64,000 bases of DNA from NCBI GenBank assembly GCA_015257125.1, contig JABZKU010000009.1, forward strand, positions 10,473 to 74,472. The letters are read 5' to 3'. Below the pieces are notes generated by a model. That model was not told the DNA's origin. It made no database searches and saw nothing but the letters and a program-made list of their open reading frames with translations. The position numbers and the translations under genes are program-made. Shown piece by piece: positions 3,000 through 63,158 of this stretch (the first letter of the stretch is position 1; each line of letters starts with the position of its first letter). The DNA is from Prevotellaceae bacterium (GTDB lineage: Bacteria > Bacteroidota > Bacteroidia > Bacteroidales > Bacteroidaceae).

Positions 3000-3057
3000 A
3001 CCACCGCAAAAGCAGAAAGCGGCGACAGCAATTCGCCCCACTTTCCCCATTCACACA

Positions 3058-3098
3058 CGGGATTTGTCTTCAATCGCGAAGACAAATCCCGTTTTTTC
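3058..3098 (+). terminator. intrinsic terminator after yqeY
   Basis: Perfect 13-bp stem cgggatttgtcttc / gaagacaaatcccg with loop aatcgc, followed by TTTTTT. Confidence 0.6.
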
Positions 3099-3487
3099 GT
3101 ACCCATCTGCCGGCTATTCGAAACGCCTCGGGCACCCCGTTTTCGAAACACCACGACTTTCGCCAAAAAGTTCACAACTTCCGCGCGAAACTCCCCTTGT
3201 TTTGCCCGAAAGAGCACAAGAAAATCTGCAAACCACTGATTTTCTCTGTTTTTTTGGCAAAATCAACATAGAAGAAACGGCCGCCTCCAAAAAATATGCG
3301 TATCTTAGCCTATCGATCTGTTTCGTGCGACAAATCGCGCGTCACCGGGTTGCGCAGCCCCTTGCTCGACTGCGGGAACGCGCCCGCCGATACGGCACAC
3401 AGCGCCGCACATTGTGCCCGCTGTTTCCGCGCCCACTCACGAAAAGCCGCAACCCCGATCGACAAACACGCCAAGCCCCTCGCAATT

Positions 3488-5206
3488 ATGACCTACCAGT
3501 GGAACTACGTCCCCGCCCCTCCCGGCGAAGAAGCCGAAGGCCGAAGACTCTCCGAAGAATTGGGCATGCACCCCGTCTTCGGGCGCATGCTCCGCGAGCG
3601 TTGTATCTACACAGCCGCCGCCGCACGCCGATTCTTCCGCCCGCAACTCACCGACCTGCACGACCCGTTCCTCATGAACGATATGCAGGTGGCGGTCGAA
3701 CGCCTCAACCTCGCCATCGCCCGCAAGGAGCGCATCATGGTCTACGGCGACTATGACGTCGACGGCGTCACCTCCGTGGCACTGGTCTATCGATTCATCA
3801 GTCGCTATTACAGCAACATCGACTACTACATCCCCGACCGCTACGAAGAAGGGTACGGGGTGTCGAAACGCGGTATCGACTATGCCGCCGAAACCGGTGT
3901 GCGCCTCATCATCGTCTTGGACTGTGGCATCAAGGCCGTCGAAGAAATCACCTATGCCAAGGAGTGTGGCATCGATTTCATCATTTGCGACCACCACGTT
4001 CCCGACGAGGTCTTGCCCCCGGCTGTGGCCATTCTCAATCCCAAGCGTCGCGACAATCACTACCCCTACACGCATCTCTCGGGCTGCGGCGTGGGTTTCA
4101 AATTCATGCAGGCCTTTGCCGCTGACAATGGCATTGAGTTCAACCGCTTGCACGAGTTGCTCGACCTCTGTGCCGTGTCGATTGCATCGGACATCGTGCC
4201 CGTCACGGGCGAAAATCGCATCCTCGCCTACCACGGGCTGCGGCGCCTCAACTCCAACCCCTCCATCGGTTTGCAAGCCATCGTGGAGGTGTGCGGACTG
4301 GCCGACCGCGAACTGACGATGAACGACATCATTTTCCGCATCGGCCCCCGCATCAATGCCTCCGGACGCATGCAAAACGGCAAAGAAGCCGTCCAACTGC
4401 TGGTCGAAAACGACTACTCCACCGCCCTCAATCAGGCTTCGCACATCAATCTCTACAACGAGGCGCGCAAAGATCTCGACCGCAAGATGACCGAGCAAGC
4501 CACCGAACAGGTCAGCGCCATGAAGGGTCTCGAAGAGCGCCGCGGCATTGTCATCTACAACGAGGAGTGGCACAAAGGCATCATCGGCATTGTGGCCTCG
4601 CGCGTCACCGAACAATACTATCGCCCCGCCGTGGTCTTGACCCGATCGGGCGACATGGCCACCGGTTCTGCGCGCTCCGTCACCGGCTTCGACGTCTACA
4701 AAGCGGTGCAAAGCTGCGCCGACCTGCTCGAAAACTTCGGCGGACACACCTATGCCGCCGGACTCACGCTGCGAGTGGAGAACGTGCCGGAATTTTCGCG
4801 ACGTTTCGAAGCCTACGTGGCCGAACACATTCTCGACGAACAGACACAACCCTCGCTCGACATCACCGCTGTGCTCGACTTCAACGAGGTCGATTTCGAA
4901 TTCTACAAGCAGTTGCGCAAATTTGCCCCCTTCGGGCCCGGCAACGAGCGCCCACTCTTCTGCACGCCCCGCGTCTATGACTATGGCACCTCGAAGGTGG
5001 TGGGACTCGGACAGAAGCACATTCGCCTCGAATTGGTCGACAACAAATCGAACGCCGTGATGAACGGCATCGCCTTCGGCCAAAGTTCGCAGGCACGCTA
5101 CATCAAAACGCGCCGCGCCTTCGGCATCTGCTACGCGGTGGAGGAAAACTCCCACAAACGCGGCGAGGTGCAGTTGCAAATCGAAGACATTCGTCCCTGT
5201 GAGTAA
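3488..5206 (+). CDS. recJ: single-stranded-DNA-specific exonuclease RecJ
   Basis: DHH motifs (MVYGDYDVDGVTS, ICDHH), a DHHA1 region and a C-terminal OB-like region. The ATG at 3488 gives ~572 aa; the ORF-track start at 3296 is an unlikely leader. Confidence 0.85.
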   Translation: MTYQWNYVPAPPGEEAEGRRLSEELGMHPVFGRMLRERCIYTAAAARRFFRPQLTDLHDPFLMNDMQVAVERLNLAIARKERIMVYGDYDVDGVTSVALVYRFISRYYSNIDYYIPDRYEEGYGVSKRGIDYAAETGVRLIIVLDCGIKAVEEITYAKECGIDFIICDHHVPDEVLPPAVAILNPKRRDNHYPYTHLSGCGVGFKFMQAFAADNGIEFNRLHELLDLCAVSIASDIVPVTGENRILAYHGLRRLNSNPSIGLQAIVEVCGLADRELTMNDIIFRIGPRINASGRMQNGKEAVQLLVENDYSTALNQASHINLYNEARKDLDRKMTEQATEQVSAMKGLEERRGIVIYNEEWHKGIIGIVASRVTEQYYRPAVVLTRSGDMATGSARSVTGFDVYKAVQSCADLLENFGGHTYAAGLTLRVENVPEFSRRFEAYVAEHILDEQTQPSLDITAVLDFNEVDFEFYKQLRKFAPFGPGNERPLFCTPRVYDYGTSKVVGLGQKHIRLELVDNKSNAVMNGIAFGQSSQARYIKTRRAFGICYAVEENSHKRGEVQLQIEDIRPCE

Positions 5207-8595: not shown

Positions 8596-9744
8596 GTTCC
8601 GCGCATGGGCGACACGCCTTTCAGCAATTTGCACTTAGAGAAAAAGCCGCCCCTTGTTCCGCAGTCGAAATTAGACAACGACAGACGAACTGTTGGCCAC
8701 ACAGCATAGAAATAAGCCATTATTGGTTCATCCCACATTTGGAGTGAGGCGTCAACTACCGGAAGCCCTTTCTCGAAAGTGCACCGGCCTCCCACTTCAT
8801 CCCCCCAACGCGCACGCGTAGCGCGCGCGTCCGCTGTTTTTCGTTTTTTGCCTTCACCTCTTCACCATACGACGGTAAGAAGCTCGAAAACAGCGACTTG
8901 CGTGTGAAGACTTCACCCCTTTCTCCTTCACCGGTGAAGGCAAAAAAAGGGCTTTTCCTTCACACACAACGCGCACTGTATCAACAACTTGCGGATAAAG
9001 GTGAAGGGTGAAGGCAAGAATTTCGAACTCCCTGAGTGCGCGATGCGCAGGGGCGTGTCCGTTCGCGCGTACGGAGGTGCGGATGAGGAAAACATGGGTG
9101 ACACCGTGAGCGAAGGGACGGGTGTCTTTTCAAAAAAAGCGGAGAGGAAGCAGAGAAAAGAAGAGGCGTTTCGTAAGAAAGTCCACAAGTTTTTATTCAA
9201 TCTCTCCCTTTTCTCAAAAATCGAAATATTTTTCTCGCAAAATCTTCGACAATTCGAAACTAAATCCTTACTTTTGCGCTTGACAAAACACAACTTCCCT
9301 TCATTCCGCCGCACTGCGGCGTCCATATAGCGCAAAGTCGAGGTACTGTCCCGACCATCCGGCGCAAACGCTCTTTGACCTACTGAACCGGCGCGACTTC
9401 GCCATATCCCTACCTATCTGAACAGGCGAAAAGCGCTACGCTCCGGCGCGGGATGCGTCTTCACGCGACCGCGACGAGCTATAATCGAAGCGCTCCAAAC
9501 CACCATCCACACAAGGTACAAGCCACTATAACACAACGACTTGCACACCCTACCGGACTGCAAGTAAAACCGTTTCCCTATCCACCGAGCACGTCTTGAC
9601 AGACTTCCCCGTTGACCCCAATCGCCGTGAGCGAAGAAGATCATCGGATAGGACTTCGACGCGGAATGATGGCCGCATCACTCCCAATGTCTGATGAACT
9701 TTACATTATACCTCTGCACTTTCATTTCATAATCCCCATACCTC

Positions 9745-10122
9745 ATGAAAAAAGCCCTCTCCACCACGCAGGCACCTGCCGCCATCGGTCCTTACTCACA
9801 GGCCATTGAAGTGAACGGCACCGTCTATGTCAGCGGACAACTGCCGGTCGATCCCGCCACCGGCGAGTTTGTGCCCGGCGGTATCCAAGAACTCACGCAC
9901 CGTTCGCTCACGAATCTCACCCATGTGCTGACCGAAGCCGGTTTGACGCTCGACAATGTGGTGAAAACCACCGTATTCTTGGCCGACATCGAAGACTTTG
10001 CCGCCATGAACGAGGTCTATGCTTCGTTCTTCAAAGCGCCTTTCCCCACTCGCTCCGCGATGGCGGTGAAAACGCTCCCGAAAGGTGCGCGCGTTGAGAT
10101 AGAATGCATCGCCGTGCGCTGA
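9745..10122 (+). CDS. ridA: RidA family (YjgF/TdcF) reactive-intermediate deaminase
   Basis: MKKALSTTQAPAAIGPYSQAIEVNGTVYVSGQLP... is a classic RidA sequence. 125 aa. Confidence 0.85.
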   Translation: MKKALSTTQAPAAIGPYSQAIEVNGTVYVSGQLPVDPATGEFVPGGIQELTHRSLTNLTHVLTEAGLTLDNVVKTTVFLADIEDFAAMNEVYASFFKAPFPTRSAMAVKTLPKGARVEIECIAVR

Positions 10123-11657: not shown

Positions 11658-11921
11658 GAGGGGGATTAGTATTTGAATGTAAAGAAATACGGAGCTTTTA
11701 TCGAATATATGAGGCAAAATTACTCAAACTCATGGACACCTGCAAAGCCACGCGGCAAAAAACAGAAAAAAGTTGTGGACTTTTTCTCTATCGACGCGAA
11801 AAAAAGGGCTTTGCCGTGTGGCGAATTAAAAAGAGAATGACTACCTTTGCTCTGTGTCACAGCACAAAAGACACACTCCACTGAATGAACATTCATTTCA
11901 CTTACATAAATCCCAAAGAAA

Positions 11922-12914: not shown

Positions 12915-13149
12915 TCGCCCCGGGCTGATCGACCCCAACACGCGGCGCTCCTCCTTTGCGGAGGGGCGCCGCTTTTTTGTTGCCCCACGCTTTTCGCCCG
13001 CTCACAACGAGGGAAACAAAAACAAACGCGCCTCCTGTCGCCCCTAAGCCGCCAACAGCACAACCGGAACTACCGGCTTTTTCGCACACTGCCACGCCTT
13101 CGCATCGAGGCACAAGTTGGGCGCGCTGAAAATGGACAACTTTTGCCAC

Positions 13150-13195
13150 AAAGTGGGGGACTTTCATCGAAAAAGTCCCCACTTTTCTTTCTCAT
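13150..13195 (+). terminator. hairpin + T-tract (candidate terminator, also a variant of the dispersed AAAGTCC repeat)
   Basis: aaagtgggggacttt / aaagtccccacttt inverted repeat (14-15 bp stem) followed by tctttctc. Confidence 0.4.
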
Positions 13196-13662
13196 CGCTC
13201 AAGAAAAATTTGCATCTTGACAATTGCCGTGCTAAAAAACTTATGCCGACAGAAAAAACGGGCGACACACTTCCCTTTCGCGCCCACCCCGTCGCACCAC
13301 ATCACTCCTCAAGAAGAATCGTCGAGCAAGATTTGCATACATCGCGCTTTTCGTCCTGCGAAACAGCCCGAAAATCACAAGATGATGGAAAGCAAGGCAC
13401 CGGCTACCGCCGAGAACGACTGCCGAATTGCACAAAACGCGCAGAAGGTCGGAAGTACCTATCGGAAACAGCCAACTTCGGATGAGTGCGTGGAGGTGAG
13501 TTATTTAACCCCATCGGAGCGGTTTCGGAAAACCTCTTCTTTGGACACGTTGCAGACGAAGTAAAATATAAAAATTGCCTATTCTGCCTAACAAAACACA
13601 CATAAAACATAATCGTTGAAAGATCGCTCGCAGAAAATCCCACAAATATCGCCGCAATCTCG

Positions 13663-13670
13663 TATTTTTG
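13663..13670 (+). promoter_or_regulatory. candidate Bacteroidota sigma-A -7 box (TATTTTTG) upstream of giant gene 1
   Basis: Matches TAnnTTTG about 125 nt upstream of the ATG at 13796. No clear -33 TTTG. Confidence 0.3.
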
Positions 13671-13795
13671 TAACGAAATGTAGCCATACGAAAGTAGTCG
13701 CATGCGATATGAATCGCCATTGCGGCTCCTTTTGAATGAAGATGAACAGACGCACTTTCAAGGACTATAGCAACAAATTTCAATTTATCAGCAAT

Positions 13796-19700: not shown

Positions 19701-20431
19701 AGTTCGAAGCCAAAACAGCGAATGCCGGTGAGTTTATCGTTGATATCCATCTGACAACTTGTACGGTAACGCTGTATGGTAAGCACACGGTTGGTATTGC
19801 AAGTATTAAAGAAGCCAGTGGTTTGATCCTCACACAACAAGCTTGCGCGGGTGAACCGGTTGCTTTCAATCTTGATCCTGCAAGCGCAACCATCGACGGT
19901 GAGAAAGCCGATGCGGATGAAATTGAATATCAGTGGGAACGTACTGCTACACCGGACGATGAGTCTACTTGGACTCCGATTCGCAATGCAACGGAACAGA
20001 ACCTGACATACAATGCCGCTGCCCCGGGTGTTTACTATGTTCGCCGTACGGCAAAAATCGGCGACTGTAAGGCGATCAGTGACCAATCAAAGTTGACGGT
20101 TATTGCGGGTATTAATGTCGCTATGACTCCGGATGAGCAGTCAAGAACGATCAATGATAAGAATCCCTTCACGCTCACGGCCGGTATTGTAACGGGTAAT
20201 CCGAATCGCACTTACCAATGGCAACGCAGTGCCGACAAGAAGCATTGGGTGAACATCGGTACAGATGAAACCTTCACCGAAACGAAGCGTTTTGGTAACA
20301 CGGTTTACTACCGTCGAATTGTTTCTGCCGGTGCATGTAGCATCGAAGGTCAACCGATCACGGTTCGTTTCAAGAAGCGTTGGCCGGCTTACATCAACCC
20401 GCAGGTTCGTCAGCGTACGCTCGATGATTAA
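13796..20431 (+). CDS. giant secreted cysteine-patterned repeat protein with SprB-like repeats (2211 aa from ATG 13796)
   Basis: N-terminal signal peptide (KQWFFGLCCTLLLLCASALPSAGQ), then ~20 repeated ~90-100 aa modules. Each module has a conserved Cys and a GG..Y.Y motif (e.g. CTDSGKGIIHMALKGGNAPYTYKL) resembling Pfam SprB repeats. It is a paralog of the minus-strand gene at 22077..28685. No recognisable T9SS type A/B CTD. Confidence 0.8.
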   Translation: MQSTSTSKQWFFGLCCTLLLLCASALPSAGQNCPNFGWNDFTKSIVQPNLDCNKPGEVTIRYSNNVVGVDEVHYQFGSGTSGPWFHEVDAAAPGSTVKAEIPTSMSGKSLFVRVTTKCGTDTRSNVWNMGNIIAQKTETITLQGSSTPAGSGTGSSGGITVWLNGPSGITEATFKLYKWHGTAVLASQRSTRPYEGVTFFNLEKGDYEVKVEAKPACTPTTTASNWDTDHFNLSKVIYVGSFNLQVTSIPARGTCTGGVKVEPSKVTGVQQMEYVLTTQADRNTPIQAFTANYPNFAHTFTGLPAGQYTVRATEKTGNSQVSSNFNVGNQNASPAVTVNHHTLRGVAEGEVNIRLDNTTEACPAKLTLTRDNTTSGLPFTTMVKNNITEENTLFEGLTEGNYTITAEYGGQSFSAKFGIAHSTMGYLYNRGVTQANSICDPSGSANWLLSGGFYYNPLEVKIVDRNTQNLVRKFTLPAGQTYFETKGLFPGDYTLTVGYEAANQFTTSNFSIAPKDNVQGYLSFALDEPTEFCGDQPMAKIAVNFIGAGGIENYPGTQKFMNGATFEIYDAEGNFLYSGNMPQLTGNAKSTIESPFAPNRGQIKVKPTCGYPILTYTLSSINGMKGAYLFSPDFTYRGCGSRGTNVDLRVLDTKNNVVPLITYTVKKKTGELIGTYEMKEGVNTAIFANMEPGDYDVEWYPQCKPDQKHQETFRVEDKVNETRREIRGAVCEDQGYIRIDFTSFRNINGWRYELIRKNDNKLMRVYGSVNSTVVSFERVPAGDYIVKAIPIVECGDITPGEFEVTVPAITAGSEISDPIYLWTRDADALPFQYVGKVRYYTRLPYSYVKWRVLDVSTNAEIKKGEVHPVANNTGTFPIVVEGLPHTYKIEFETPCGTYTRIDSLNLANRKQLPGFELTTIAGNTECNTTPSLTVKSRLKAAGLPDKASRIQLYKYVDKGDGYKWHFDQEVADANAIIETKTFENLDPGIQYYVNYFYDGTSDRQQIGIPGNAGTMSVPVYTSSFSPKGTAILTVNPYAGTPGSTMEVVVTDNQQNEIFNKTVSATEATKIEVKKPATGFTVKTKVLNGCFKDKTFTSYLYPTTTPVFSFDTRTNRMQCKNDGEITMILPEAFHDVDQVHYTLKKITGTQYTDVAETTKPAEPKTFIGLEAGTYEISARATVFKDETGQPKVMDFKRNVQLTTPYRDGLYATVRPDYMVSTRSECAQGRIGLNIEKGSGRYRVFLKKTPDGVLPEPKELFTDGIYSSMRNKLWGENFKPGHYALTVTDGCMERDIPDAEILEMPNLASASFNRWYMNGDKRMKKELGEKVDSFLYQVKFDPSAFPASYQQTAYRSYEVQVVGKGQAPDDTQWKSNWNTPNDGQAILDNYSKRFNNCDGVDILLRMKNCPETLIRVPTTIDVINMFYGSWQLLKCNTVQWIFTDGEIGHKYHLKVKNTTDNVVVYEKDITYTSREQYLTRDPELEFPSDKSYHLEMTPSDYCGNPVYHSPYNFNRVERIYRYSLDDGLIMSDCDGRRLAIYGWTDCKLPMKYFVYEVTATGENLVAQSGNYVPERWYSTYKFLKDHRYIIRVVEYGQPETTKIDLVDFTLNYRLPSGYKKSVDYLWSTQTMCGSAYDATKKAYNLNALHWFFGTADWTGVPPVEQKTYVTIPNMKIVATQKEAPHRKFVSTKVSRYNTTYMRHEAWKEELADGSLIDAAYAPEGKYTVVAQTDGCGEINLGDEYLGRPTIDLSASTVTSACDGKFTVTPKGTITYHGSTEEAEITSFYVQGDNANTTRNWGQSFDTYQRLFTLVVNMKRKSDGKTCTTTWPFSMSNYVLDFDQSQSLSMFCTDSGKGIIHMALKGGNAPYTYKLMSLDGTEIARKTVPGAVDFEHGKLGERYRITATDACGLTWIHQDVLLQDPAAISSSMTIETSFCAGDRAKLAAREFPGATYLWHLPDGSTKAGRVIEFEAKTANAGEFIVDIHLTTCTVTLYGKHTVGIASIKEASGLILTQQACAGEPVAFNLDPASATIDGEKADADEIEYQWERTATPDDESTWTPIRNATEQNLTYNAAAPGVYYVRRTAKIGDCKAISDQSKLTVIAGINVAMTPDEQSRTINDKNPFTLTAGIVTGNPNRTYQWQRSADKKHWVNIGTDETFTETKRFGNTVYYRRIVSAGACSIEGQPITVRFKKRWPAYINPQVRQRTLDD

Positions 20432-20571
20432 ACCTTGATTTTCTTCAGAGCAGAAATTACTAGTATTAGATTCTGCTTTGCTGAAAAGGACAAAATAATT
20501 GGCGTCCGTATCAAACGAAAGTTTTGATACGGACGCCTTTGTTTTGTCTATGGATATAGCAGTTCGAAAAA
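19276..20571. repeat. left arm of a ~1.3-kb near-identical inverted repeat (3' end of giant gene 1 plus 3'UTR)
   Basis: The reverse complement matches 21937..23232 almost base for base. About 330 nt were compared by eye with 1 mismatch, and the encoded C-terminal ~385 aa differ at 4 positions. Confidence 0.8.
20501..20546 (+). terminator. intrinsic terminator of giant gene 1
   Basis: ggcgtccgtatcaaa-cgaaagt-tttgatacggacgcc is a perfect 15-bp stem followed by tttgttttg. It is part of the duplicated arm. Confidence 0.65.
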
Positions 20572-20678
20572 GGGTGATACTGTCCCCAAACGTGTGTAAG
20601 CTCGATACTGTCCTATAAAAGTGTGTAAGCTCCAAAGTTCTTATATTTGTGGTGAAATCAAAAATCAAATCAAGAACA

Positions 20679-21329
20679 ATGAAGCTTACAATGGAACAAA
20701 GATCGGAAATAATTTCCGAACCGGCCTCTAGTGAGGCAGGTTTTAATGAGTTGATGCGCGTACTTTTGGATAGTTTTTCCAAGCAGGAACGTGCCCTCTT
20801 CTTAGAGGAACATAAAGGTGAACAAGGCAACGGTTTCCGTCCTCGTCGTTGGCGTGGTCACGGTTGCAGCTTTCAACTTCGCATTCCTCGCACTCGCTCG
20901 GGTACTTTTCAACCGATCATACTCGGCATCTTGGCTGCTCAGGAAAGCGAGCGTGCGCTGCTTTTTCATGAGTTGTATGCGCGTGGACTTTCCTGTGAAG
21001 ACATCGCCGAGGTGGGTCGCCGCATCTACGGTCATCATTACAGCAAACAGCAGATGAGCCGGCTCTCCGGGGCTTGTTATGAGGAGATCCAAGAGTGGCT
21101 TGCGTGCCGACTTACTTCTCATTATTTGGCCGTCTACATCGATGCCACGTTCTGCAGCACGCGTCGTGACGGGAGCGTCTCGAAGGAGGCCTACTACACG
21201 ATGTTGGGACTGCTGCCCGACGGGAGTCGTGAGGTGCTCACGGTGGTTAATCACCCAAAGAAGGGGCAATTGCATGGGAAATGGAGCTCGAAGCGCTCAA
21301 GGAACGCGGCGTGGAACAAATCGATTTGA
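20679..21329 (+). CDS. IS256-family transposase, N-terminal part (orfA; frame 0, contains first catalytic D)
   Basis: ...LAVYIDATFCSTRRDG...LTVVNHPKKG, then the frame closes at 21329. The start is set at the MKLTMEQ ATG; the ORF track begins at 20649. Confidence 0.7.
   Translation: MKLTMEQRSEIISEPASSEAGFNELMRVLLDSFSKQERALFLEEHKGEQGNGFRPRRWRGHGCSFQLRIPRTRSGTFQPIILGILAAQESERALLFHELYARGLSCEDIAEVGRRIYGHHYSKQQMSRLSGACYEEIQEWLACRLTSHYLAVYIDATFCSTRRDGSVSKEAYYTMLGLLPDGSREVLTVVNHPKKGQLHGKWSSKRSRNAAWNKSI
21254..21260 (+). other. C_CCA_AAG slippery heptamer: candidate programmed -1 ribosomal frameshift site (or 1-bp deletion in an A-run)
   Basis: In the orfA frame the codons are cac CCA AAG aag. Shifting -1 gives CCC AAA gaa ggg gca ..., which translates PKEGAIAWEMELEALKERGV and continues the IS256 transposase (orfB frame). 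This matches the X_XXY_YYZ rule. Confidence 0.45.
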
Positions 21330-21829
21330 TTGTCTCCGATGCGTTGAGCGGTATCGAAAATGCGGTGTGTTCGGCTTTTCCCACGGCGCTGCACCAACTC
21401 TGCGTCGTGCATTTCAAACGGAAGGTGTTGAACACCGTTTCCACCAAAGACAAAGCCGAGGTCGGTGAGGAGCTCAAAGCGCTCTTTCCCGTGGAGCATA
21501 CCGACATTATGCCTCTTGCGGCCTATGAGAATTTGCGTACCTTCGCTCGGCGTTGGGGCAAGAAATACCCGAGCCTTGCCCGATTGGACAGAGAACGCAA
21601 TGCGGCCTATTTCACTTATCTAAGGTTTCCCGAAAGTGCACGCCGAATGATTTACTCGACCAACTGGGTGGAACGTCTCAATCGCTGCTACAAGCGCACT
21701 TTACTCATGCGTGGAGCGATGCCTTCTCCCGCTTCCGTGGTTTATCTTTTGGGCTCTGTTGCCAAGGAGAAAACGGAAGGGACGTATGCAAGACGGCTAC
21801 CGTATTTTCGGGAATGGATAATCAAGTAA
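21257..21829 (+). CDS. IS256-family transposase, C-terminal part (orfB; -1 frame; second D and E of DDE)
   Basis: ...IDLIVSDALSG... and ...YSTNWVERLNRCYKRTL carry the second D and the E of the IS256 DDE triad. The track lists it as 21281..21829, and the open -1 frame begins just after a TAA at 21249-21251. Confidence 0.7.
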   Translation, partial: KEGAIAWEMELEALKERGVEQIDLIVSDALSGIENAVCSAFPTALHQLCVVHFKRKVLNTVSTKDKAEVGEELKALFPVEHTDIMPLAAYENLRTFARRWGKKYPSLARLDRERNAAYFTYLRFPESARRMIYSTNWVERLNRCYKRTLLMRGAMPSPASVVYLLGSVAKEKTEGTYARRLPYFREWIIK

Positions 21830-21859
21830 AACGACAAATAAAAATCAACATCACAAATT

Positions 21860-21893
21860 CCCCTCCGGCTTGGGGTACCCCAAGCCGGAGGGG
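21860..21893. repeat. perfect 34-bp palindrome inside the IS, 30 nt after the transposase stop
   Basis: cccctccggcttggg-GTAC-cccaagccggagggg. It could act as a terminator or as a transposase/host-factor site. Confidence 0.5.
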
Positions 21894-21936
21894 AAGGACG
21901 AAGGAGTATCTTACACACTTTTTCGGACATTACCCT

Positions 21937-23232
21937 TTTTTCGAACTGCTATATCCATAGACAAAACAAAGGCGTCCGTATCAAAACTTTCGTTTGATAC
22001 GGACGCCAATTATTTTGTCCTTTTCAGCAAAGCAGAATCTAATACTAGTAATTTCTGCTCTGAAGAAAATCAAGGTTTAATCATCGAGCGTACGCTGACG
22101 AACCTGCGGGTTGATGTAAGCCGGCCAACGCTTCTTGAAACGAACCGTGATCGGTTGACCTTCGATGCTACATGCACCGGCAGAAACAATTCGACGGTAG
22201 TAAACCGTGTTACCAAAACGCTTCGTTTCGGTGAAGGTTTCATCTGTACCGATGTTCACCCAATGCTTCTTGTCGGCACTGCGTTGCCATTGGTAAGTGC
22301 GATTCGGATTACCCGTTACAATACCGGCCGTGAGCGTGAAGGGATTCTTATCATTGATCGTTCTTGACTGCTCATCCGGAGTCATAGCGACATTAATACC
22401 CGCAATAACCGTCAACTTTGATTGGTCACTGATCGCCTTACAGTCGCCGATTTTTGCCGTACGGCGAACATAGTAAACACCCGGGGCAGCGGCATTGTAT
22501 GTCAGGTTCTGTTCCGTTGCATTGCGAATCGGAGTCCAAGTAGACTCATCGTCCGGTGTAGCAGTACGTTCCCACTGATATTCAATTTCATCCGCATCGG
22601 CTTTCTCACCGTCGATGGTTGCGCTTGCAGGATCAAGATTGAAAGCAACCGGTTCACCCGCGCAAGCTTGTTGTGTGAGGATCAAACCACTGGCTTCCTT
22701 AATACTTGCAATACCAACAGTATGTTTACCATACAGCGTTACCGTACAAGTTGTCAGATGAATATCAACGATAAACTCACCGGCATTCTCTGTTTTGGCT
22801 TCGAACTCGATTTCGCGGCCGGCTTTTGTAGAACCATCGGGCAAGTGCCATAAGTAAGTTGCACCAGGGAATTCGCGCGCTGCAAGTTTAGCCCGATCAC
22901 CGGCACAGAAGGAGGTCTCGACAGTCATCGAAGATGAAATTGCATCAGGGTCTTGCAGCAACACATCTTGGTGAATCCAAGTCAATCCGCAGGCATCGGT
23001 AGCCGTGATACGATAGCGTTCACCCAACTTACCATGTTCGAAGTCCACGGCACCGGGCACAGTCTTGCGGGCAATTTCCGTACCGTCGAGAGACATCAAC
23101 TTGTAAGTATAAGGTGCATTACCACCCTTCAGAGCCATGTGGATGATACCCTTACCCGAGTCGGTGCAGAACATACTCAAGCTCTGAGACTGGTCAAAGT
23201 CGAGCACGTAGTTGCTCATCGAGAAAGGCCAG
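21937..23232. repeat. right arm of the ~1.3-kb inverted repeat (3' end of giant gene 2 plus 3'UTR)
   Basis: Mirror image of 19276..20571; the stop codons map onto each other (20429 <-> 22079). Confidence 0.8.
21961..22007 (-). terminator. intrinsic terminator of giant gene 2 (mirror copy)
   Basis: Same 15-bp stem as at 20501, with a T-tract on the minus strand (acaaaacaaa on the top strand). Confidence 0.65.
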
Positions 23233-28685: not shown

Positions 28686-29773
28686 CTTAGTTAATCATTT
28701 ATTGTATCTGTGTAATGAATTGAATTATAGAATTTCTATTGTTCACGATCCATGCAAGTGCTCATTTGCGCAAGCGCTCATACGGATTGAGATTTTCCCA
28801 TCGTTTACTTCATCGACAAACGTCGCACTCGAATTCAAATTATCGCGCGCGACCACTGTCATAAGATTACATTCCAAGGACAAATATACGCGATGTGAAG
28901 GAGAAGACGCAGTTTTTGAGGGTAAAATGCGTCCCGAACCTCAAAAACACCTTGTTTTGACACACACAGTCATCAAAATCGGCGGTTTTCGTGAAAACAA
29001 AGCAGTCGTTTGCCTTGAATTGGAATCATCGTCCCGTTCAGGAATGCAACTTTATTGACTGAAAACGAAAGTCGACTCAAAAATCAGGAACAAACAGGCT
29101 ACATGATTAGGGACGTGGCTTGCCCATCTTCTCAACTCCTCCTCATCGTTTTGCACCGTCCTCTTAGATTTCTTCTTTCTTCACACCTTTCTCCTTTTCA
29201 TTTTCCCCATCATCCATGAGTTTTTTGGGTAGACGCATACACGAGTAAAGAGGGCATTGGAAATCCATCTCTGAAAAAGCACCTCAACCTTCAACACAAA
29301 AATCAGCTGATTACAAACGAATTAACAGGACACGCTTCACATAGAGATTAGAGAGTGGCCAAGTTCTTTCTCCTCTCCACTTTGTTTGCCCTCGGTAGCG
29401 GTAGAGCTTCCCACACAAGGGTGTGCGAATCCTTTCTTTTTTACTTAAAAGACAGCGGCACGCTCGAGGTATTTTCTTGCGCCGAGGCGAAAAACAACTT
29501 GCCCGTACGCACATGCGCAACGCGCATTTCACTCCCCTTTTTCGACATGGCCTCACCTCAGTTCGGCCGGTCTTGGCTAACGGCTATTTTATCTTTGCAC
29601 GCGTTGAAAATCGGGGCTATTCTCATCGCGTTGCCTGCATCGCGATGATGCTTTCCTTACATGAACTCTCGGCATTGAGTCAACATGAGTGCAAACAGCG
29701 GGTAAGGACAAACACAACGCACAGCAGCATAAGATGAATTCCCTTCGGTGTCATCACAAACCCGGCAATAGAC

Positions 29774-29841
29774 GAAGAAAAGTCCACCGGTTTCGCGAAA
29801 AAACGCCCAGTTTTTGAAGCAAAGTCCACTGTTTTTTCGCG
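29774..29841. repeat. three-unit array of the AAAAGTCCAC repeat upstream of giant gene 2
   Basis: Units gaagaaaagtccaccggtttcgcg, aaaaaacgcccagtttttgaagc and aaagtccactgttttttcgcg. The period is about 22 bp. Confidence 0.7.
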
Positions 29842-30014
29842 ATGCCTTGTGGGCGGCGCATCCGAAACGATGAGTCGCCCTTTCAACTGCGGCGGTTTGC
29901 GGTTCATTCAGCGCATGGAGCGTAAATTTTCCGCACAAAAAAGCCCGCAGTTTATGTGAACTGCGGGCTATTATTTCGTCTATTTTATGGGGATCGCACG
30001 GCGGCTGCGCGCAT

Positions 30015-45424: not shown

Positions 45425-46525
45425 ATGCGCATTCATCACCAACTGCTTGTTTCTGTCGCTGCGTTGGGGCTGGCCTTCGGGCTTGCCCTCACTTCCTGCG
45501 CACGCACACAGCACAACACTCAAACACCAACCGCAATGAACGATACTGCCACTCTCTACTTTGCCGGAGGCTGCTTCTGGGGCACCGAGCATTTCTTCAA
45601 ACAAATCAACGGGGTGCTCGACACCCGCGTGGGCTATGCCAACGGCCACACGGAAAACCCCACCTACGAACAAGTGTGCGGCCACAACACCGGTTTTGCC
45701 GAGGCCGTCGAAGTGAAATACGACCCGCAACGCCTTCCGCTCACACTCCTTGTGCAACTCTTCTTCCGCACCGTCGACCCGACCAGCGTAAACCGTCAGG
45801 GCGGTGACGTGGGGCCGCAATACCGCACCGGCATCTACTACACCGATCCCGACCTGCGTCCGATGCTCATAGCCGAGAAAGCCAAACTCGCCGCCGCTAT
45901 CGGTCGCCCCGTGGCCATCGAGGTCGAACCGCTCCACAACTTCTATGCCGCCGAAGACTATCACCAAGACTATCTCGATGTGCATCCGGGTGGCTATTGC
46001 CATGTGCCGAGTGCCCTCTTTGAGGAAGCCCGCAAGGCGAACGCCGACACGCCGGAAAAACGCACGTATAAGAAAGCCACCGACGCGGAATTGCGCAGCC
46101 GACTCAACGACCTCCAATACGCCGTGACGCAAAAAGCGGCCACCGAAGCCCCACACAAAAATGCCTACGATAAGGAGTTCCGCCCGGGCATCTATGTAGA
46201 CATCACGACCGGCGAACCCCTTTTCCTCTCTACCGACAAGTTTGAATCGGGTTGCGGCTGGCCGGCCTTCTCGAAGCCCATCGATCCGCACCTGCTCGAC
46301 AACCTCTCCGACAACAGCCACGGCATGCAACGCACGGAGGTGCGCAGCAAACTCGGCGGTGCCCACCTCGGCCACGTCTTCAACGACGGCCCGAAAGCCA
46401 CCGGCGGACTGCGCTATTGCATCAACAGTGCCTCGCTTCGCTTTGTCCCCAAAGCGGAGATGGAGCGCGAAGGCTACGGCGCCCTCCTGCCTTTGCTCGA
46501 CACACCGAAGGCCATGGCGCATTGA
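45425..46525 (+). CDS. msrAB: bifunctional peptide-methionine sulfoxide reductase MsrA/MsrB, lipoprotein
   Basis: MsrA motif [15 protein letters not shown] and MsrB CGWPAF...[11 protein letters not shown]. Lipoprotein signal LALTSC. Confidence 0.85.
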
Positions 46526-46647
46526 GATCGCGGCGCTTTTCATCCCGCATTTCCGTTTTTCCCGACCGCTCCTCGTCCTTTTCGACGAGGAGCGGTTGGC
46601 GTTTGTAGTACTGTCCACACCACCCGAAACATCGGAGGGAGTTTTGT

Positions 46648-46715
46648 CGAAAAAGTCCACCGGTTTTGCGACAAACTCCACTGCTTTCACGCAAAAGTCC
46701 ACCGTTTTTTCCTGC
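46648..46715. repeat. array of three ~22-bp tandem units, core AAAAGTCCAC(C/T)G-TTTT (member of a dispersed intergenic repeat family)
   Basis: The three units are cgaaaaagtccaccggttttgcg, acaaactccactgctttcacgc and aaaagtccaccgttttttcctgc, with a 21-22 bp period. Similar arrays lie at 3140-3205, 9172-9196, 11767-11815, 13128-13190, 29774-29841, 54076-54162 and 63034-63124. Confidence 0.7.
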
Positions 46716-47130
46716 TTCTTTTGGCCTATGTGAGCACAACGGCCGACGATTGGGGAAAAGTTCACCGCGCGGGAGAAAATGCGCCACAAACAAGGCGGCG
46801 CATTCCATGGTTTCTCCGACCGCGGTGGGTGTTTTTCTCCTCATCGCCCCTCTTTCCGTTGCGAAAGAGGGGCGATGTTTTTGCCCTTCGCCCGCAGCCG
46901 GCGAAAACGACCTGTCGGCACGAAGGAAAGGGTGAGGGCGGGCGAAAGTGTAGACGAGGCGGTGCGGAAGCACGGGCGGAAAGGCGTGGGCACAAGGGCA
47001 CAAAAAAGCGCCGGCCGACGTGAGTTAAACGTCTGCCGGCGCGAAGAGGAAGCACTGTGAGCGAAGCGAACACTTAGTCGTGAGCCGTCACCATCAAGGC
47101 GCGGCGACTAAGCTGTTTCGCCGCAGGAGC

Positions 47131-54075: not shown

Positions 54076-54162
54076 AGAAAAACAGTGGACTTTTCGCCAA
54101 AAGTAGGGACGTTTTCAAAGAAAGCCCACGACTTTTGGAAGAAGATTGTGGACTTTTGCGCG
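54076..54162. repeat. four-unit array of the same repeat in inverse orientation (GTGGACTTTT) upstream of PSP1 gene
   Basis: GTGGACTTTT / AGGGACGTTTT / CCACGACTTTT / GTGGACTTTT occur at 54086, 54106, 54126 and 54149, spaced 21-22 bp. Confidence 0.7.
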
Positions 54163-62796: not shown

Positions 62797-63158
62797 GTCG
62801 TGACTATTATAGGGGATAGATTGGCACAAAAGTACGCTTTTCTTTGAACAATGACAAGCATTTAGCGTTCTTTGGGCGCGAGCGACACTTAGGTTCTTGC
62901 CCGTTCTCCCTCTGTCGGGAGGGCATTCGGGTGATTTATCCTGTGTGTGAACATTTTGTGCAGAAAGTCGGGACGAAACTCCGACCGACTCCTTATTTAT
63001 ATATAGGGATAATTGAACTTGCGTGTGCGCTACGCGAAAAAAGACGCAGCACCGGCAACGAAAAACAGACCGGTTTCATCGAAAAGTCCACTGTTTTCGA
63101 ACAAAACTTGAGGACTTTTCGACGAAAGGAGCGCAGGAATTTTGACGACGTGCGGCGA

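Follow-up and report, generated by a model that had tools for sequence, protein, structure and literature searches.

Background

The closest described element to the repeat that we discuss here is BrickBuilt of Porphyromonas gingivalis, a 23-nt unit that is found at 19 loci per genome, in every case between genes, and reaches 22.8 copies at a single locus (PMC4596501). A wider frame is given by the mycobacterial interspersed repetitive units with variable-number tandem repeats (MIRU-VNTRs), which are described as interspersed minisatellites whose copy number varies from strain to strain (PMC3635867). Our repeat comes from 64,000 nucleotides of a Prevotellaceae bacterium (contig JABZKU010000009.1 of assembly GCA_015257125.1, positions 10,473 to 74,472), a stretch that we call the window and number from its first letter. 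It is a unit of 21 bp whose intergenic arrays hold one to four units per locus; the array at 46648-46710 will be called the focal array. The original prediction, made from the letters of the window, had described this locus (46648-46715) as a member of a dispersed family of tandem arrays and had proposed that these are protein-binding sites evolved in place.

Like BrickBuilt, the 21-bp family belongs to Bacteroidales, forms dispersed intergenic arrays without spacers and from one copy up, has imperfect units, is restricted to a species and lies near promoters. Unlike BrickBuilt, it has a period of 21 instead of 23 nt, it lacks shared flanks or inverted repeats, its loci are much denser and its intergenic arrays shorter, and one array lies inside a gene. 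No similarity to the BrickBuilt unit is reported.

A family of 21-bp units in non-coding DNA

Enrichment over shuffled sequence and a 21-bp register show that the motif family is real. Within the 8.9 kb of non-coding DNA of the window, AAAAGTCCACNG occurs 9 times with at most one mismatch, against 0.20 expected and a maximum of 3 in shuffles made segment by segment with dinucleotides preserved. The original prediction was to be given up if the motif proved no commoner than composition predicts; in the window it is far commoner. When the whole window is shuffled, 8 matches to AAAAGTCCACYG at no more than one mismatch stand against 0.56 expected. The exact core AAAGTCCAC is present in 10 copies (0.54 expected), nine of them in the non-coding 16% of the window (p=6e-7). 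On the same strand, mean similarity to the consensus is highest at distances of 21 and 42 bp from strong units, where 7-8 of 15 positions match as compared with 3.6 in the background, and in a position-matrix scan the units of each array keep one exact 21-bp register. The period, first put at about 21-22 bp, is exactly 21 bp.

The unit consists of CG, a run of 4-5 A, (G/C)TCC(A/C)C, three variable bases, a run of 3-5 T and 2-3 variable bases. Its core is GTCCAC or, alternatively, TCCCC, and a T-run of 4-5 is followed by CG. The ends CGAAAA…TTTTCG are inverted repeats; the unit as a whole is weakly palindromic, and some units are fully so, e.g. AAAAAGT-N5-ACTTTTT at 11767. A scan with a 17-mer consensus, followed by a position matrix, recovered these loci:

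46648-46710, + strand: focal array of three abutting units, CGAAAAAGTCCACCGGTTTTG, CGACAAACTCCACTGCTTTCA and CGCAAAAGTCCACCGTTTTTT; 46648-46668 is strong, 46669-46689 weaker (AAACTCCAC) and 46690-46710 strong
46753-46773, + strand: lone in-phase unit GGGAAAAGTTCACCGCGCGGG, 105 bp (5 x 21) from the first unit of the focal array
3142-3204, + strand: three degenerate units (3142, 3163, 3184) between the yqeY terminator and recJ
9174-9194, + strand: single strong unit about 75 nt upstream of the -7 box TACTTTTG
11767-11787, - strand: single unit, nearly palindromic (AAAAAGT-TGTGG-ACTTTTT), with the -7 boxes of the divergent genes gdhA and mdh on either side
13126-13188, no single strand: three units of mixed orientation (13126, 13147, 13168), with 13148/13168 an inverted pair capable of forming a hairpin
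29775-29837, + strand: three units (29775, 29796, 29817), strong-weak-strong
54077-54160, - strand: four units (54077, 54098, 54119, 54140); from the nearest, the PSP1 operon's -7 box lies about 110 nt downstream
63037-63122, no single strand: four units (63037, 63058, 63079, 63100), with 63079 (+) and 63102 (-) an inverted pair

The original prediction spoke of at least nine regions and listed eight. All eight are recovered, though 9172-9196 and 11767-11815 contain one good unit each and no array. Its description of the focal sequence is accurate, and Tandem Repeats Finder agrees (46648-46708, period 21, 2.9 copies, 72% matches). The strong-weak-strong layout, with 42 bp between the strong units, is found at 29775, at 46648 and in one array outside the window. 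A unit or an array is present in 8 of the 15 intergenic gaps of at least 150 bp in the window, and arrays occur at a density of about 1 per 7 kb.

Persistence, copying and change in length

The host species is common in human-gut assemblies. Its Mdh, as encoded in the window, is identical to MBF1065891.1, and its nearest named relatives are metagenome-assembled genomes (MAGs) labelled Bacteroidaceae, Rikenellaceae or Alistipes. The same array loci recur in many independent assemblies. Across the focal gap, five conspecific contigs are identical save for one base outside the array; the focal cores are invariant in 5 distinct conspecific sequences, and the number of units never changes in more divergent conspecific metagenome sequences (93-98% identity). 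Only 14 of 211 columns vary within arrays, compared with 205 of 1381 in the surrounding intergenic DNA (Fisher p=8e-4), and the A-run and core positions of strong units hold at most 2 of these 14 variable sites (p=0.006). Protein binding or another sequence-specific constraint fits the sparing of these positions. The 29775 array has 3 variable columns of 64 in 13 distinct conspecific sequences. A 1-bp indel segregates in one of its T-runs, which rules out that the intergenic arrays encode small peptides.

In a syntenic sister species (Mdh 97% identical) arrays stand at the same places in decayed form, with a TCCCC-type core. By alignment, the 3142-3204 array has a decayed counterpart in place, and the counterpart of the single gdhA-mdh unit, also in the same place, reads best in the opposite orientation. 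At 87-89% Mdh identity, relatives hold zero units in loci of 21 kb each. Because copies are in place in the sister species and no units are found in these relatives, we take the arrays to be old at their sites within the lineage and confined to it; the family is seen in the host species and close relatives only. The conservation in related genomes to which the original prediction had looked thus extends, in decayed form, to the sister species and ends short of the 87-89% relatives.

Copying is seen in arrays outside the window. A metagenome-wide scan for AAAGTCCACNG-N31-AAAGTCCAC gave three true loci, two in the window and a third that we call locus C. They co-occur in the same assemblies (for instance on OWLM01 contigs at 4.7x and 5.4x coverage), and the contigs around locus C contain further arrays at the same density. 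In L131, locus C (3976-4059) is 79% identical over 63 bp to the reverse complement of a second array (13627-13710), while the two have unrelated flanks and the median identity among other array pairs is 60%. Both are 84-bp modules of four units that share a non-consensus weak unit (GCTSATTCTYCCC) and a GAAG prefix of the third unit. On this comparison, at least one multi-unit module has been copied to an unrelated site. The 9.6 kb between these inverted arrays hold the type IX secretion operon porP-porK-gldL-gldM-gldN and four housekeeping genes. In another strain (L197), part of the bracketed segment is only 86% identical as against 96% in the remainder. Evolution in place, as originally proposed, is supported in part: it describes arrays that are held in position between the sister species and the host and do not change copy number within the species; it does not describe the L131 module, copied between unrelated flanks.

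A scan of a genome collection with the variable-gap pattern AAAGTCCACNG-N{10,31}-AAAGTCCAC was loose and returned mostly chance matches and unrelated repeats; among the matches listed, L021 is informative and L029 is an analogue, to which we return below. Operon spacers hold units as well. In L021 a four-unit array occupies the gap from bacA to the truB start codon. At L149 12245 a lipoprotein gene begins 38 bp past the upstream stop, and a unit extends over its start. A viral scan gave 21 single matches on contigs of 32-40% G+C, unrelated to the 21-bp family, which phage contigs do not carry.

Change in length is found inside a gene. At L149 10112-10300, at least 8 units of mixed orientation lie in frame within ispD, and the Pfam match of the product is split into residues 30-122 and 215-345. 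Homologues of IspD have 318, 325, 332, 339, 346, 353, 360 and 374 aa, in steps of 7 residues. They are 95-98% identical outside the repeat and differ by whole heptads, which are whole 21-bp units (proteins P0121-P0240). The insertion of about 85-140 residues, with heptads such as ENSELSA, ETPQLSA and DNPQSAT, lies in a loop and stands in place of a 6-residue loop of a relative. The ispD array is, to judge from these proteins, an in-frame VNTR in an essential isoprenoid enzyme, and it is tolerated there because none of the unit's forward frames contains a stop codon. For the same reason, gene callers set spurious open reading frames (ORFs) or extensions over arrays, as in the 159-184-aa ORF over the 54-kb array and the bacA tail in L021.

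Position relative to transcription units

Arrays typically lie after the terminator of one transcription unit and before the promoter of the next. Five of them begin 49-155 nt past a strong terminator of the upstream gene, the distance being 68 nt for the array at 54077-54160. The terminators concerned are:

46562-46599, + strand: terminator hairpin of msrAB; the focal array, in a convergent gap, begins 49 nt beyond
3057-3092: upstream-gene terminator
54265-54228, - strand: upstream-gene terminator
29969-29942, - strand: upstream-gene terminator
12942-12972: upstream-gene terminator

Units in operon spacers abut start codons. Exact Bacteroidetes -7 boxes (TAnnTTTG) are located in non-coding DNA in 16 cases out of 23, and their distance from the arrays varies from about 55 to about 890 bp, so that their position, a point that the original prediction had left to be checked, follows no fixed rule with respect to the -7 box. 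The flanking genes are housekeeping ones without a theme in common: yqeY/recJ, a nucleoside-transporter-like gene/ridA, gdhA/mdh, two giant surface proteins, msrAB (which starts at the lipoprotein ATG at 45425)/GH2 beta-galactosidase, thioredoxin-like lipoproteins, the PSP1-gldH operon and a PALP enzyme. Of the arrays in co-directional contexts, 8 run sense, 1 runs antisense and 3 are mixed (p=0.02, on a small count); the 29775 array is the sole one that is antisense to both neighbouring genes. The excess of sense arrays would allow for a bias of insertion or of selection that is linked to transcription or replication. The predicted curvature of the arrays falls between the 93rd and the 99.9th percentile of the window (wedge model, with parameters after Bolshoy et al. 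1991).

Several of these gaps have features of their own. Downstream of the focal array, 46711-46885 (+ strand) contains a -7-like TTCTTTTG at 46717-46724 and, 130 nt later, a second strong terminator (46842-46877; 15 pairs and TTTTT), with a hairpin at about 46782-46806 inside the region. This region is conserved among conspecific sequences, is without an Rfam match and may, given these signals, produce an unannotated small transcript. Long ORF-free stretches at 28686-30014 (1.3 kb) and 12915-13735 (0.8 kb) lie upstream of the giant surface-protein genes and have -7 boxes near the start codons. In the longer one there are, in addition, a -7 box on the + strand at 29590 and, at 29942-29969, a bidirectional terminator, and an antisense or non-coding transcript of about 370 nt spanning the 29775 array is conceivable. 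Between a Gate-domain gene and ridA (8600-9745) there is about 1.1 kb of non-coding DNA where the sister species has 132 bp (L123 7690-7820); the single unit at 9174-9194 falls within this stretch, which is missing from the sister species. For 469 bp after an exact -7 box at 9269-9276 there is no ORF, and the stretch may be a non-coding RNA gene or the relic of an insertion. At the annotated recJ ATG, the 50 nt from 3296 to 3345 (ATGCGTATCTTAGCCTATCGATCTGTTTCGTGC…) are 100% identical to L123, are better conserved than the adjacent coding DNA and are followed at once by a large indel that breaks the alignment; they may encode a conserved peptide at the N-terminus or represent an element that is regulatory or acts as RNA. 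Across the whole window the sign of the GC skew tracks the coding strand, negative for + genes (1-16 kb) and positive for - genes (28-64 kb). It follows that coding strands are rich in C and A, and that the minimum of the skew near 24-28 kb probably does not mark a feature of replication.

Proposed nature of the arrays

On balance, we are inclined to regard the 21-bp family as a lineage-specific interspersed minisatellite. It would belong to the broad class that includes repetitive extragenic palindromes and bacterial interspersed mosaic elements (REP/BIME), MIRUs and BrickBuilt, without the frame of MITEs (miniature inverted-repeat transposable elements), and its arrays would be structural elements at transcription-unit boundaries. 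At least one module has been copied between sites, the arrays then persist in place for at least species-level time, and length changes by whole units, at least at ispD. As 21 bp make two helical turns, the units of an array would lie on one face of the helix; as they also make seven codons, an array could sit in frame in a protein loop. Such a unit is neutral to helical phase and to reading frame alike, which would explain how one repeat occurs both between genes and inside an essential enzyme. The phased A/T runs would bend the DNA. Because A-run and core positions are spared by polymorphism, we infer that either a host DNA-binding or architectural protein reading AAAAGTCCAC, or gene conversion between copies, keeps the strong units intact; a host architectural protein probably binds the arrays. 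If correct, the arrays would be bent, protein-bound spacer DNA at the boundaries of transcription units rather than the operators of one regulon, and in this they would be akin to enterobacterial REP/BIME.

Several points weigh against this proposal. Only some 86 kb of the host genome were examined in all, and locus C and the ispD locus were assigned to the host species solely by co-occurrence with similar coverage. Module copying rests on one clear paralogous pair, and no transposase, target-site duplication or empty site was found for the arrays in the sequences examined. Copy-number change is documented solely for the long ispD array; three intergenic arrays show none in 4-13 conspecific sequences. 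Other promoter regions are predicted to be as curved as the arrays. Finally, the reduced polymorphism could stem from protein binding, from gene conversion or from constraint on neighbouring sequence.

Dispersed repeat families in gut Bacteroidales are poorly described, and this one is present in roughly every second of the larger intergenic gaps of a species that is abundant in the human gut and uncultured. Since the ispD array varies by whole units, the family is specific enough for use in typing strains. Should the constraint on the core reflect a binding protein, a nucleoid factor would be indicated, and the arrays would be markers of the boundaries between transcription units.

Alternative explanations

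The view of the original prediction was that the arrays are operator-like or iteron-like sites for one DNA-binding protein, evolved in place, with cooperative binders on one helix face. We consider this possible and rather unlikely. The exact two-turn phasing, the spared A-run and core positions, the strong-weak-strong layout with its 42-bp spacing at three loci, the retention of sites in the sister species and a comparable array in another Bacteroidales MAG (see below) all speak for it, and the sparing in particular agrees with constraint by a binding protein. However, an operator array is expected to keep a fixed distance from its promoter and to serve a coherent regulon, and here the spread of distances to the -7 box leaves no operator-like geometry, while the flanking genes have no functional theme. 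Mixed unit orientations, units at start codons within operon spacers, the in-frame and copy-number-variable ispD array, the non-consensus module common to two loci and the absence of units from related species are equally unlike operators. The iteron option fails, as the units are dispersed over at least 8 loci among housekeeping genes with no rep gene nearby. Separately, we compared the unit with motifs of known regulators (DnaA box, OxyR, CRP/FNR, Rex, ArgR, LytTR and AraC half-sites). LytTR, AraC and ArgR sites have the 21-bp spacing in common with it; apart from this no motif fits, and none accounts for the density of the arrays. A reading as tandem Bacteroidetes -33/-7 promoters (TTTG-N19-21-TAnnTTTG) is also ruled out, the TTTG-to-TTTG spacing being 21 where 27-29 is expected.

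The MAG just mentioned (L029, 59% G+C, with the label Bacteroidaceae) contains 22-bp arrays whose cores are full palindromes, at 312-373 and 2558-2699. In one of them, perfect palindromes (AAACAACGSCGTTGTTT) stand in a strong-weak-strong layout, and a -7 box, TACCTTTG, lies about 100 bp downstream; the second consists of 6.5 copies of AAAGTCCACGGACTTT / AAAAGTCCACGGACTTTGGAGT after the end of a gene. Because of these analogous arrays, there are hints that the design of A-run, palindromic core, T-run and two-turn period is more widespread in the order. Tandem repeats of 40-42 bp (TTGTTCTCCGCTTCGCTATCGAAAGTCCACTGGACTTTCTTC) in Bacteroidales contigs (L025, L037, L055, L089, L094, L116, L129, L132, L192) contain the palindrome AAAGTCCA-C-TGGACTTT and look like a different family with a common core. 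In a Lentisphaeria MAG (L007, L010, L036, L039, L041-L043, L050, L065, L080 and others) a dispersed and very abundant repeat is made of GTCCAC-like words (…GTCCACTAAAGTCCACAGTCCATCGTCTACTAA…) and has a period near 34 bp; it has no relation to the window.

Another suggestion, for which we see a somewhat smaller chance than for operators, is that the arrays are loading sites for an undescribed, lineage-own and sequence-specific architectural protein in an insulator or domain-boundary system with about one site per 7 kb. The protein would coat the two-turn-phased units at transcription-unit boundaries (in one case, inverted arrays bracket the porP-gldKLMN operon), and the repeat would spread through protection or copying by the host protein.

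It is improbable that the arrays act at the RNA level in 5' or 3' untranslated regions, be it as REP-like 3' stabilisers, as terminators or as parts of small RNAs. The sense excess in co-directional contexts would agree with such a role, although the count is small. So would the -7-like box and strong terminator that follow the focal array, as well as the + strand -7 box at 29590, which would transcribe the 29775 array in sense. The inverted pairs do fold: 63079/63102 forms a hairpin of -38.3 kcal/mol (z = -6.1) directly 3' of the PALP-enzyme stop codon, and 13148/13168 resembles a terminator. From this folding, inverted pairs may therefore have been co-opted as 3' hairpins. But arrays of direct repeats have no significant RNA fold (z from +0.3 to -1.7), most arrays stand downstream of strong terminators, and searches of Rfam at gathering and permissive thresholds found nothing but tRNA-Glu and noise.

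Very doubtful is an origin as relics or miniature derivatives of multi-site transposon ends (Tn7-, Mu- or IS21-like) mobilised in trans. With 3-4 contiguous units of about 21-22 bp, the arrays have a layout like that of such ends; one module has been copied between loci, and an IS256-family element is present in the window. Against this, the inverted L131 arrays bracket a type IX secretion operon and housekeeping genes instead of mobile-element genes, which rules them out as transposon ends. No terminal dinucleotide signature or target duplication was seen, and an all-against-all search of the 250-bp flanks of 14 arrays found no shared leader or tail. The IS256-like inverted repeats (…TGTCCCCAAACGTGTGTAAG) do not score with the unit matrix and are thereby ruled out as the source of the unit. 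The IS256-like element itself (20576-21932) encodes a Mutator-type transposase split by a frameshift into ORFs 20649-21329 and 21281-21829. Its terminal repeats are imperfect and about 28 bp long, the left one being tandemly duplicated (a 29-bp repeat, 20576-20632). The element is exactly centred in a 175-bp, 99% perfect inverted repeat (20400-20574 / 21934-22108), to which two giant genes, convergent and paralogous (2231 and 2202 aa), contribute their 3' ends and their terminators.

We find it hardly credible that the unit is a motif kept common by biased uptake or repair, like a DNA uptake signal. The Haemophilus uptake signal has a core that begins with AAAGT, followed by A/T tracts one turn apart, and resembles the unit in form; within the species, a change from GCCCAC to GTCCAC in L118 also shifts a weak unit toward the consensus. 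Uptake signals, however, are numerous single copies in coding and non-coding DNA, whereas nine of ten exact cores are non-coding here, the units are mostly in tandem arrays, and exact cores number only about 1 per 6 kb. Chance or composition, which could appeal to the lower G+C of non-coding DNA (49.6% vs 55%) and its wealth of A/T runs, is refuted by the excess over dinucleotide-preserving shuffles, by the exact register and by the recurrence of the same loci in independent assemblies.

Comparison with known repeat classes

The original prediction recognised no known Bacteroidota element in the arrays, and neither Rfam nor the literature provides one: no description of the 21-bp family was found in the searchable literature, and a search with the literal sequence gave primers only. 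It was also right to set CRISPR aside, since the units abut, whereas CRISPR repeats of 24-48 bp are separated by unique spacers. It was right, too, in that the arrays are not copies of a MITE with conserved flanks or terminal inverted repeats, and so no MITE of the BrickBuilt type; inverted repeats are limited to the CGAAAA/TTTTCG ends of the unit, and the IS5-type terminal repeat GAGACCTTTGCA has 4 matches at up to 2 mismatches in comparison with 5.5 expected, none of them adjoining an array. No empty site was found among the sequences compared, and one module is common to two loci.

Residence in a coding gene has a parallel in the Rickettsia palindromic elements (RPEs), which can lie in frame within genes without destroying them, and the ispD array is comparable in this respect. 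RPEs, however, are single palindromic insertions of about 100-150 bp, neither tandem 21-bp arrays nor variable in copy number.

As in MIRUs, one family of units is found in tandem at many dispersed loci. Variation by whole units, which marks the MIRU-VNTRs, is seen at ispD (318-374 aa) and not at the three intergenic arrays followed in conspecific sequences. Supply et al. (1997) reportedly found that MIRUs lie within operon spacers, with reading frames that bridge the neighbouring genes, and the bacA-array-truB arrangement resembles that position. MIRU units are longer (about 40-100 bp) and lack the design of A-run, core and T-run; the 21-bp arrays mostly follow terminators, and the intergenic ones have kept their number of units in the sequences examined.

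In a REP/BIME element a single unit forms a hairpin; here only inverted pairs fold. REPs measure about 35 bp, are imperfectly palindromic and are linked to REP-associated tyrosine transposases (RAYTs), whereas the 21-bp unit is mostly a direct repeat, is weakly palindromic and has no known associated gene; no RAYT gene (IS200/IS605-like) was seen within the DNA examined. REP/BIME elements are bound by host architectural proteins such as integration host factor (IHF) and gyrase. They and the 21-bp family are alike in being abundant, in lying outside genes at 3' ends and between transcription units, in occurring in both orientations and in mixed arrays, and in forming hairpins from inverted pairs.

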